This document shows, piece by piece, positions 5,507-5,854 of a stretch of DNA of 64,000 nt. The stretch's first letter is position 1. Each line of letters begins with the position of its first letter. Under the pieces are notes generated by a model. It was not told where the DNA came from, ran no database searches, and saw nothing but the letters and a program-made list of their open reading frames with translations. The position numbers and the translations under genes were made by a program. Source of the stretch: a phage; the NCBI GenBank assembly GCA_019566135.1, contig GCA_019566135.1_3044.1; one strand, given 5' to 3'.

Positions 5507-5854
5507 TCAATACGGTTTAGCATCAAATTTTCTCTCAATTTCAGGCGTGAAATATAATTCTTTACCGCGTTTGGAAAAGCGACCAATAATATGATAATTA
5601 TTTTCATCAAACGTGATATTACCAATATCCATAGCTTTCAACCAAATATCGATATTTCTATCCAGCTTTATGTCAAAATTCCAATACGGAGAACTATTAC
5701 CGAAAATACTGCAAGCGGATTCAGTGAAACAACTGCTATAAATCTTGTCTTTAGGAACTACTAATTGATAGACACCTTTAATAAACTGAGGACCCTGCCA
5801 CTTTGGCTGTTTCGCGTCTTTTTCTAATAGAATAGGGTAATAATTAAAATTCAT
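5507..5854 (-). CDS. Hypothetical protein inserted between frd and td (115 aa from ATG 5854)
   Basis: ORF with SD GGTGGA before ATG 5854; overlaps frd 3' end by 11 nt; no recognisable motif. Confidence 0.5.

Follow-up and report, generated by a model that had tools for sequence, protein, structure and literature searches.

ORF X, a conserved small gene between frd and td of T4-like phages, and the allelic states of the frd/td junction

In phage T4, the genes for dihydrofolate reductase (frd) and thymidylate synthase (td) overlap by four nucleotides, ATGA, with frd at 145109-145690 and td ending at 145112 in T4 coordinates; the overlap was reportedly described by Purohit and Mathews in 1984. 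The stretch analyzed here is a 64,000-nucleotide phage sequence (GenBank assembly GCA_019566135.1, contig GCA_019566135.1_3044.1; hereafter the window), in which the same two genes are separated by an open reading frame (ORF) of 115 aa at positions 5507-5854 on the minus strand, designated ORF X. What is this ORF, how did it come to lie between frd and td, and what could its protein do? A sequence-only reading, which had the T4 overlap right, regarded X as an unknown ORF inserted at an old junction. The features on which it relied, namely an 11-codon extension of frd, the overlap of X with the frd end together with a ribosome-binding site (RBS) of its own, a TATAAT-like element in the spacer before td, and an intronless td, are all present in the sequence. 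The novelty of X did not hold.

X is already known, having been annotated as a hypothetical gene in RB14, T6, and hundreds of genomes for over a decade. It is called RB32ORF229c, a name derived from phage RB32, in RB14, RB51, and T6, and it belongs to the PHROG family phrog_1928 (e-value 1.1e-35, residues 12-119 of a longer 123-aa form of X against profile positions 2-125 of 126). RB32ORF229c of RB32, RB14, RB51, T6, and T2 is the same gene as X; it likewise lies between frd and td and is bordered by the flanking repeat of X. The ORF is thus found at this site in reference T-even genomes, namely T2, T6, RB14, and RB51. The X protein is 100% identical in the window, T2, T6, and RB14, and the T2 fragment AY310907 (2003) includes the reading frame without annotation. 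The whole region is 100% identical to that of Escherichia phage Ec_O157kw and 98.5% identical to that of RB14, and by this near-identity the window region is of the T2/RB14-like Tequatrovirus type.

The frequency of X was evaluated by homology searches and by a census of the junction. The X region was covered to at least 80% in 359 of 537 megablast records. With tblastn, X was found in 589 phage records, 363 of them at 90% identity or more and 226 at less than 60%, and at least 80% of the frame is retained in 586 of the 589. For the census, a 300-bp probe of the T4 junction was used and an even sample of 60 was taken from the 515 matching records. Approximately 40 of the 60 carry X, approximately 13 (~20%) carry another ORF designated Z, and approximately 4 (~7%), T4 itself, vB_EcoM_112, and HY03 among them, have the fused junction. 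X is the majority state in Tequatrovirus, present in about two thirds of genomes, and the fused junction of T4 is the unusual state. The Z type is a third allele of the junction, a 206-bp insert with a 68-aa ORF (phrog_9550) whose start overlaps the frd stop as ATGA and whose stop overlaps the td start as TAATG. Z is located at 1349-1555 in fHoEco02 (locus L016), 1649-1855 in L018, 4670-4879 in L010, and 2648-2854 in L008.

The distribution of X does not follow that of the td intron. T2 and the window carry X in an intronless setting, T4 carries only the intron, and T6 (L013, 4052-5928) carries X and, separate from it, an I-TevI-containing td group I intron. The same combination, with an I-TevI-like gene in the td group I intron, occurs in the Gelderlandvirus phage Melville (L009, 2653-4309). 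As judged from these combinations, X and the td intron are independent polymorphisms. In the window, td (4601-5461, minus strand, 286 aa) is one continuous ORF matching positions 1-266 of the 266 positions of the Pfam profile Thymidylat_synt (e-value 5.6e-93), and therefore contains no intron; an Rfam scan of 4400-6800 revealed no group I intron, the sole match being Yar_1 at chance level (e-value 0.099). An I-TevI remnant is rejected by the continuity of td, the absence of a GIY-YIG match in X, and the co-occurrence of X and I-TevI in T6. On this point the sequence-only reading was right: domain, PDB, and fold searches of X returned no nuclease motif.

Substitution patterns indicate how X has been maintained. 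Between the window and T2 there are 14 synonymous and no non-synonymous differences in X, and the protein is invariant across T2, T6, RB14, REP1, and FriedrichMiescher despite 11-14 synonymous changes. The ratio of non-synonymous to synonymous divergence (dN/dS) of X is 0-0.06 overall, and 0.05-0.06 against F2 and NHEP36, as low as that of td. By these measures X is a genuine gene under very strong purifying selection.

The family extends beyond the T-even phages. X homologues, 30-46% identical, were found in the frd-td interval of Jiaodavirus KP17, Kanagawavirus ZX14, Mosugukvirus PM2, Marfavirus VAC36, and Gelderlandvirus Melville, and from the loci compared, the frd-td interval is occupied by X homologues in at least six other T4-like genera. 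The closest homologues outside the T-even group are encoded between frd and td in two metagenomic T4-like contigs, L010 and L011 (63-66% identity). In Kanagawavirus, Mosugukvirus, Marfavirus, Gelderlandvirus, L010, and L011, X is followed by a second ORF of 113-119 aa, designated Y (L006, 2317-2676; L007, 2308-2655; L008, 2290-2643; L009, 2309-2656; L010, 4332-4673; L011, 4344-4688). Y shares the QKxW, HGxY, and GRFxKxG motifs and the PHROG with X, and is therefore considered its paralogue; relative to X of the window, the Y proteins have a similar size and the motifs Q-K-x-W, H/K-G-x-Y, and G-R-F-x-K-x-G, with only 24-32% identity. No Y was found in the window, in a hidden Markov model search of the six reading frames, or in any Tequatrovirus examined. 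In L010 and VAC36, Z lies directly before td and is ~80% identical to the Tequatrovirus Z. Gene order across these loci indicates that the fuller array is frd-X-Y-Z-td, of which the lineages retain different subsets.

In comparisons between genera, identity is 31-46% for X, 43-50% for frd, and 72-78% for td; the divergence of X roughly tracks that of frd, as expected for vertical descent. An exhaustive HMMER search of 1.84 billion representatives yielded ~20 clusters of 95-116 aa. The homologue searches, this one included, found only proteins of ~95-120 aa, and the named ones are all hypothetical proteins of T4-like phages; no Pfam domain was present in any X homologue returned. Two longer matches, P0021 and P0023, were discarded as repetitive junk, and a search for related loci with a narrow family alignment returned four near-identical loci only. 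Together the homologues show, as far as sequence comparison goes, an old family restricted to T4-like phages with its home between frd and td.

Superimposed on this descent is lateral exchange. The Mosigvirus phage NHEP36 (L015, 917-2724) has a frd that is 97.8% identical to RB69 frd and 64.6% identical to window frd at the nucleotide level. Its X is 89.9% identical to window X and its td 75% identical to window td. Synonymous divergence (dS) between the window and NHEP36 is 0.59 for X, 2.18 for frd, and 2.23 for td. Since the dS of X is far below that of the flanking genes, the comparison shows X to have been exchanged between Tequatrovirus and Mosigvirus after the genera split. F2 (L014, 894-2722) is a mosaic: its frd is Tequatrovirus-like, and NHEP36 has the nearest X and td (97.4% and 88.9% nucleotide identity). 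Homologous recombination in the conserved flanks would be enough to explain the spread of X. The I-TevI target in td is ~0.6 kb away from X, and the SegG target, in gene 32, is at a distance of a few kb. Co-conversion near homing targets should make such a locus prone to allele replacement in mixed infections. As a separate observation, td of the window is only 90.9% identical to T2 td (L004, 3918-4778) at the nucleotide level, with a dN of 0.070, compared with 95.5% for frd and 96.0% for X; this suggests that the window td, or a part of it, has a recombination history unlike that of its neighbours.

How the three junction states are related can be read in part from their boundaries. In the alignment of the window with T4, ~419 extra bases fall exactly at the T4 frd/td overlap and are flanked by a direct repeat, so that the extra DNA does lie at the T4 junction, as had been proposed. 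On the coding strand, the T4 junction is GTATA-TAAATGAAA-CAATACC, and the window junctions are GTATATAAAAATGAAATACCGCAGGGTGGAAAATATGAATTTT on the left and GGTACTAAATGAAACAATACC on the right. The repeat is AAATGAAA, 8 bp, in the window (5880-5873 and 5463-5456) and TAAATGAAA, 9 bp, in T2 and T6; the RB14 GenBank record is annotated with the words 'flanked by 9 bp repeat'. From the T4 alignment and the junction comparison, the left copy, AAATGAAA, at 5873-5880 (minus strand) contains an upstream in-frame ATG (5878-5876), and the right copy, TAAATGAAA, at 5456-5464 (minus strand) contains the td start codon (5461-5459). The left copy differs from the T2/T6 type only by two extra A's. The T4 junction (NC_000866, AH001329) lacks the ~419-bp X cassette and corresponds to the T2/T6 type reduced to its two flanks with a single copy of TAAATGAAA between them.

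These boundaries are compatible with events in either direction. The fused junction is derivable by deletion between the 9-bp repeats of the T2/T6 type (8 bp, AAATGAAA, in the window), and also from the Z type (fHoEco02) by deletion between its 5-bp AATGA repeats. The T4 junction may be a deletion rather than an old junction. RB69, which belongs to Mosigvirus, has a fused frd/td junction like T4, and frd and X of NHEP36 overlap directly by their stop and start codons (TATAAATGAATTTT). In the T2 type, the 13 nt upstream of X (GGCGGAAAATATG) resemble the frd 3′ end of L010 and L011 (GGTGAAAAGCGATG), and because of this resemblance it is suggested that the X cassette once arrived with a piece of foreign frd. 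The X RBS, GGGTGGA at 5859-5865 on the minus strand, 4 nt 5′ of the X ATG (5854-5852), is homologous to the frd 3′ end (GGTGAAAA) of the same two contigs, the nearest outgroup, and is conserved as GGCGGA or GGTGGA in T2, T6, RB14, and F2.

The upstream ATG bears on the same question. It opens the longer form of X, 5507-5878 (123 aa), the internal ATG at 5854 giving the 115-aa form, and its frame reads MKY in the window, compared with MKQY at the td start. The frame has TAA as its third codon in T2 and T6 and is opened in the window, as in RB14 and F2, by a TAA-to-TAC change. Because this frame is closed in T2 and T6, the 115-aa form is taken as the conserved product. After the upstream ATG, 7 nt match the td start with one gap (P ~0.007 against random sequence; P ~0.05 by the same estimate for the T2 form). 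The left junction therefore looks like a remnant of a td start, as the MKY/MKQY similarity had suggested to the sequence-only reading; its further step, that the insertion occurred at an old junction, is weakened by the possible origin of the T4 junction by deletion. The remnant favours re-insertion of X into a fused junction within Tequatrovirus, and an old re-insertion in the common ancestor of the X-bearing Tequatroviruses is possible. The conserved position across the subfamily shows, on the loci compared, that the home of X has always been the frd-td interval.

The extension of frd, which had been taken as a part of the change at the junction, is a different matter. The window frd is 11 codons longer than T4 frd, with two extra A's in the A-run at 5882-5878, and the extension and its stop codon occupy 5844-5879 on the minus strand (junction comparison with T2, T6, T4, and FriedrichMiescher). 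The frd genes of those four phages all end with VYK*, and the left junction of T2, T6, and FriedrichMiescher is GTATATAAATGAAATAACGCG. T2 and T6 carry X with a frd that ends as in T4, and from this comparison the extension is a separate 2-bp slippage event outside the X insertion. Since RB14 and F2 share the two extra A's and the extension, these do not stem from a sequencing error; in those two phages and in the window, unlike in T2 and T6, the extra AA carries frd 11 codons further, across the X start. The extended frd overlaps the X start by 11 nt, and its stop codon (5846-5844) lies within X codons 3-4.

Sequence searches of X, with the single protein and with the family profile, found no match in Pfam, NCBIfam, PADLOC, or PDB. 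An AlphaFold2 model from an alignment of 23 sequences predicts a small beta-barrel with a predicted local distance difference test (pLDDT) score of 92 and a predicted template modelling score of 0.84; an earlier model from 4 sequences was poor (pLDDT 61.5). The model has strands at residues 6-12, 27-34, 38-40/48-50, and 62-64, a helix at 68-76, a strand at 80-82, and a long hairpin at 86-96/99-104. In the model, the order of the elements (E-E-E-H-E-E) is that of the oligonucleotide/oligosaccharide-binding (OB) fold. The fold search gave no significant match to any solved structure, its weak matches being mostly OB-folds, and the BFVD fold search matched only uncharacterized proteins of T4-like phages. 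The predicted X shares with OB-fold domains, such as those of SSB, RPA, S1, and Teb1, small size, three strands, a helix, and a long hairpin, and resembles them also in mild basicity and in the conserved aromatic and lysine residues that the model places in loops.

In alignments of 23 and 28 sequences, the window included, only Q16, W19, G27, G91, K95, and G97 are invariant, giving the motifs QxxW and GRFxKxG. No conserved acidic or histidine residue was observed in the X family in either alignment. The family is aromatic-rich and mildly basic (isoelectric point 6.8-9.4, median ~8.8). A DNA mimic was considered and rejected, as the family is basic rather than acidic.

Several other explanations of X were weighed. 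That X is a spurious or decaying frame without function might be argued from its absence in T4 and RB69 and from the lack of a known domain or function; the retention of the frame in 586 of 589 tblastn records, the 14 synonymous and no non-synonymous differences from T2, and the confident fold from the family alignment (pLDDT 92) leave this explanation next to no probability, and the selection analysis rules it out. The BASEL records of FriedrichMiescher (L002, 2595-2942, bas39_0071) and TadeuszReichstein label X as a 'putative homing endonuclease', that is, as a free-standing selfish gene that would cleave frd/td junctions lacking it and insert a copy of itself. Like the seg and mob genes and I-TevI, X is present or absent between conserved genes at one exact site with a short flanking repeat, spreads laterally, being far more similar between the window and NHEP36 than the flanking genes are, and lies in the same genomic neighbourhood. 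Its locus lies between the known SegG and I-TevI target regions, the former reportedly described by Liu et al. in 2003. Unlike those genes, X has no nuclease domain, fold, or catalytic residues, is confined to a single locus, occurs in paralogue pairs, and evolves under strong purifying selection. The Pfam, NCBIfam, PADLOC, PDB sequence, and fold searches found no GIY-YIG, HNH, LAGLIDADG, PD-(D/E)xK, or other nuclease domain; the invariant residues are Q, W, three G, and K, with no acidic or histidine residue among them; and 115 aa is very small for a site-specific nuclease with a DNA-binding module. Moreover, X (31-46% identity between genera) diverges in parallel with frd (43-50%), the family was never seen outside the frd-td interval in the tblastn records, and a dN/dS of 0.05 and X-Y paralogue pairs are atypical of homing endonuclease genes, which tend to decay. 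The label is thus unsupported by sequence, fold, or residue evidence, and a homing endonuclease is very improbable.

A recent, lineage-specific insertion of a foreign ORF into an ancestral T4-type ATGA junction of this phage would agree with the td-start-like remnant at the left junction (AAATGAAA-TACC; P ~0.007), with the 13 nt 5′ of X that resemble an outgroup frd end as if carried in with the cassette, and with the fused junction of RB69, a member of the sister genus. The identical X protein in T2, T6, and RB14 and the presence of X in hundreds of isolates refute an insertion that is both recent and lineage-specific. The G+C content of X (33.0%) is near that of the window (35.3%), with no foreign signature, at least six other genera have X homologues in the frd-td interval, and deletion between the flanking repeats can equally produce a fused junction; taken as a whole, this origin is improbable. 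A better case, although still a rather unlikely one, can be made for a role in anti-defence or host takeover, in which X, as a small early protein, would bind and neutralize a host immunity or housekeeping protein and its position between frd and td would be incidental. X is small, non-enzymatic, dispensable, and patchy, in an early/middle cluster full of unknown ORFs, and many such T-even genes are generally known to have proved to be counter-defence factors. IpII is one example (bioRxiv 10.1101/2023.04.06.535777). Against this role, the invariant protein and the dN/dS of 0.05 even between genera show no arms-race signature, X has no PADLOC match, and the X locus is not mentioned in the accessory-gene screen papers examined.

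It is on balance probable, by a modest degree, that X is a true accessory gene of T4-like phages, expressed and conserved although dispensable, and that it encodes a non-enzymatic binding protein. X would be transcribed together with frd and td, and since frd terminates 8 nt into X in the window, translation of X would be coupled there to that of frd. It would be exchanged through homologous recombination in the conserved flanks during mixed infections, and lost gene-precisely via the short repeats supplied by the start/stop overlaps (ATGA, TAAATGAAA). The protein, of ~13 kDa, would have the OB-like strand order b1-b2-b3-helix-b4-b5 and no conserved catalytic residues, and would bind a conserved partner, which may be nucleic acid, a phage protein (e.g., of the deoxynucleoside triphosphate (dNTP) complex), or a host protein. 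The invariant Q16/W19 loop and the GRFxKxG hairpin would be the likely contacts. An OB-like mechanism of binding to nucleic acid or a partner is proposed tentatively from the model, and is possible rather than probable. X is inferred to be dispensable on laboratory hosts because T4 and RB69 lack it.

Several points weigh against this accessory-gene reading. Literature searches on the X locus tags, the PHROG, and the frd-td interval returned nothing relevant. So low a dN/dS is seen more typically in enzymes or core machinery than in dispensable accessory proteins, and a functional link does not follow from co-location with frd and td. Within Tequatrovirus, the direction could be either re-insertion of X into a fused junction or deletion in T4.

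The spacer between X and td (5462-5506, minus strand, 45 bp) is AT-rich, with 15.6% G+C, and contains a TATAAT at 5483-5478, a MotA-box-like sequence TTAGCTTCA at 5502-5494, and the td RBS AAGG at 5471-5468. A spacer of 45-46 bp with the TATAAT and the MotA-box-like element is found in the window, T2, T6, RB14, and Lutter, and the Lutter record annotates a predicted promoter there. The element may be a putative td promoter. A simple sigma-70 scan of 5300-6700 gave 7 sites compared with 5.0 ± 2.6 in shuffled sequence, which is not above chance, and the terminator scan likewise did not exceed shuffled sequence. REP1 (L017, 1120-1134), F2 (L014, 1849-1861), and NHEP36 (L015, 1849-1863) have a spacer of only 13-15 bp without the element, which is therefore dispensable. 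With two spacer lengths, the putative td promoter is itself an indel. The promoter-plus-stem-loop (PeSL) shuffling cassettes of T4-type phages, reportedly described by Arbiol et al. in 2010, in which the variable ORF has an early promoter and a stem-loop on either side, were considered as a model for the locus and rejected: there is one promoter-like element only, 3′ of X, and no terminator-like stem-loop in the spacer. Short inverted repeats of 8-16 nt are scattered at the locus.

The neighbouring genes are also on the minus strand. Downstream of td lie nrdA.2 (DUF5496, 4317-4592), nrdA.1 (DUF4326, 4037-4363), and nrdA (1782-4046). On the other side, frd (5844-6458, 204 aa) matches Pfam DHFR_1 (e-value 2.9e-19) and is 96.6% identical to T4 frd at the nucleotide level. 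Upstream of frd, an 85-aa ORF like T6 RB32ORF231c (6458-6715), a 119-aa DUF7247 protein like T6 RB51ORF237 (6700-7059), and a 100-aa ORF between frd.1 and frd.2 with no Pfam match (7371-7673) are all absent from T4, where the gap between frd.1 and frd is only 72 bp. These small ORFs add a further set of indel polymorphisms to the cluster.

T4, the textbook reference, represents a minority state of the frd/td junction, and differences from T4 at this locus should not be read as novelties. The frd/td junction is a three-allele polymorphism, and natural X-bearing, Z-bearing, and empty alleles are available in otherwise near-isogenic phages. The X family, which is tiny, restricted to T4-like phages, constrained like an enzyme (dN/dS ~0.05), and predicted to have a fold without a solved relative, is a candidate for functional work. 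A bolder proposal, which is speculative and doubtful at present, is that phrog_1928, comprising X and Y, is a structurally new class of small beta-barrels that couples to or regulates dihydrofolate reductase and thymidylate synthase in the dNTP complex. If true, such coupling to the synthesis of deoxythymidine monophosphate would explain the residence of X and Y between frd and td, their translational coupling, and their thymidylate-synthase-like constraint.

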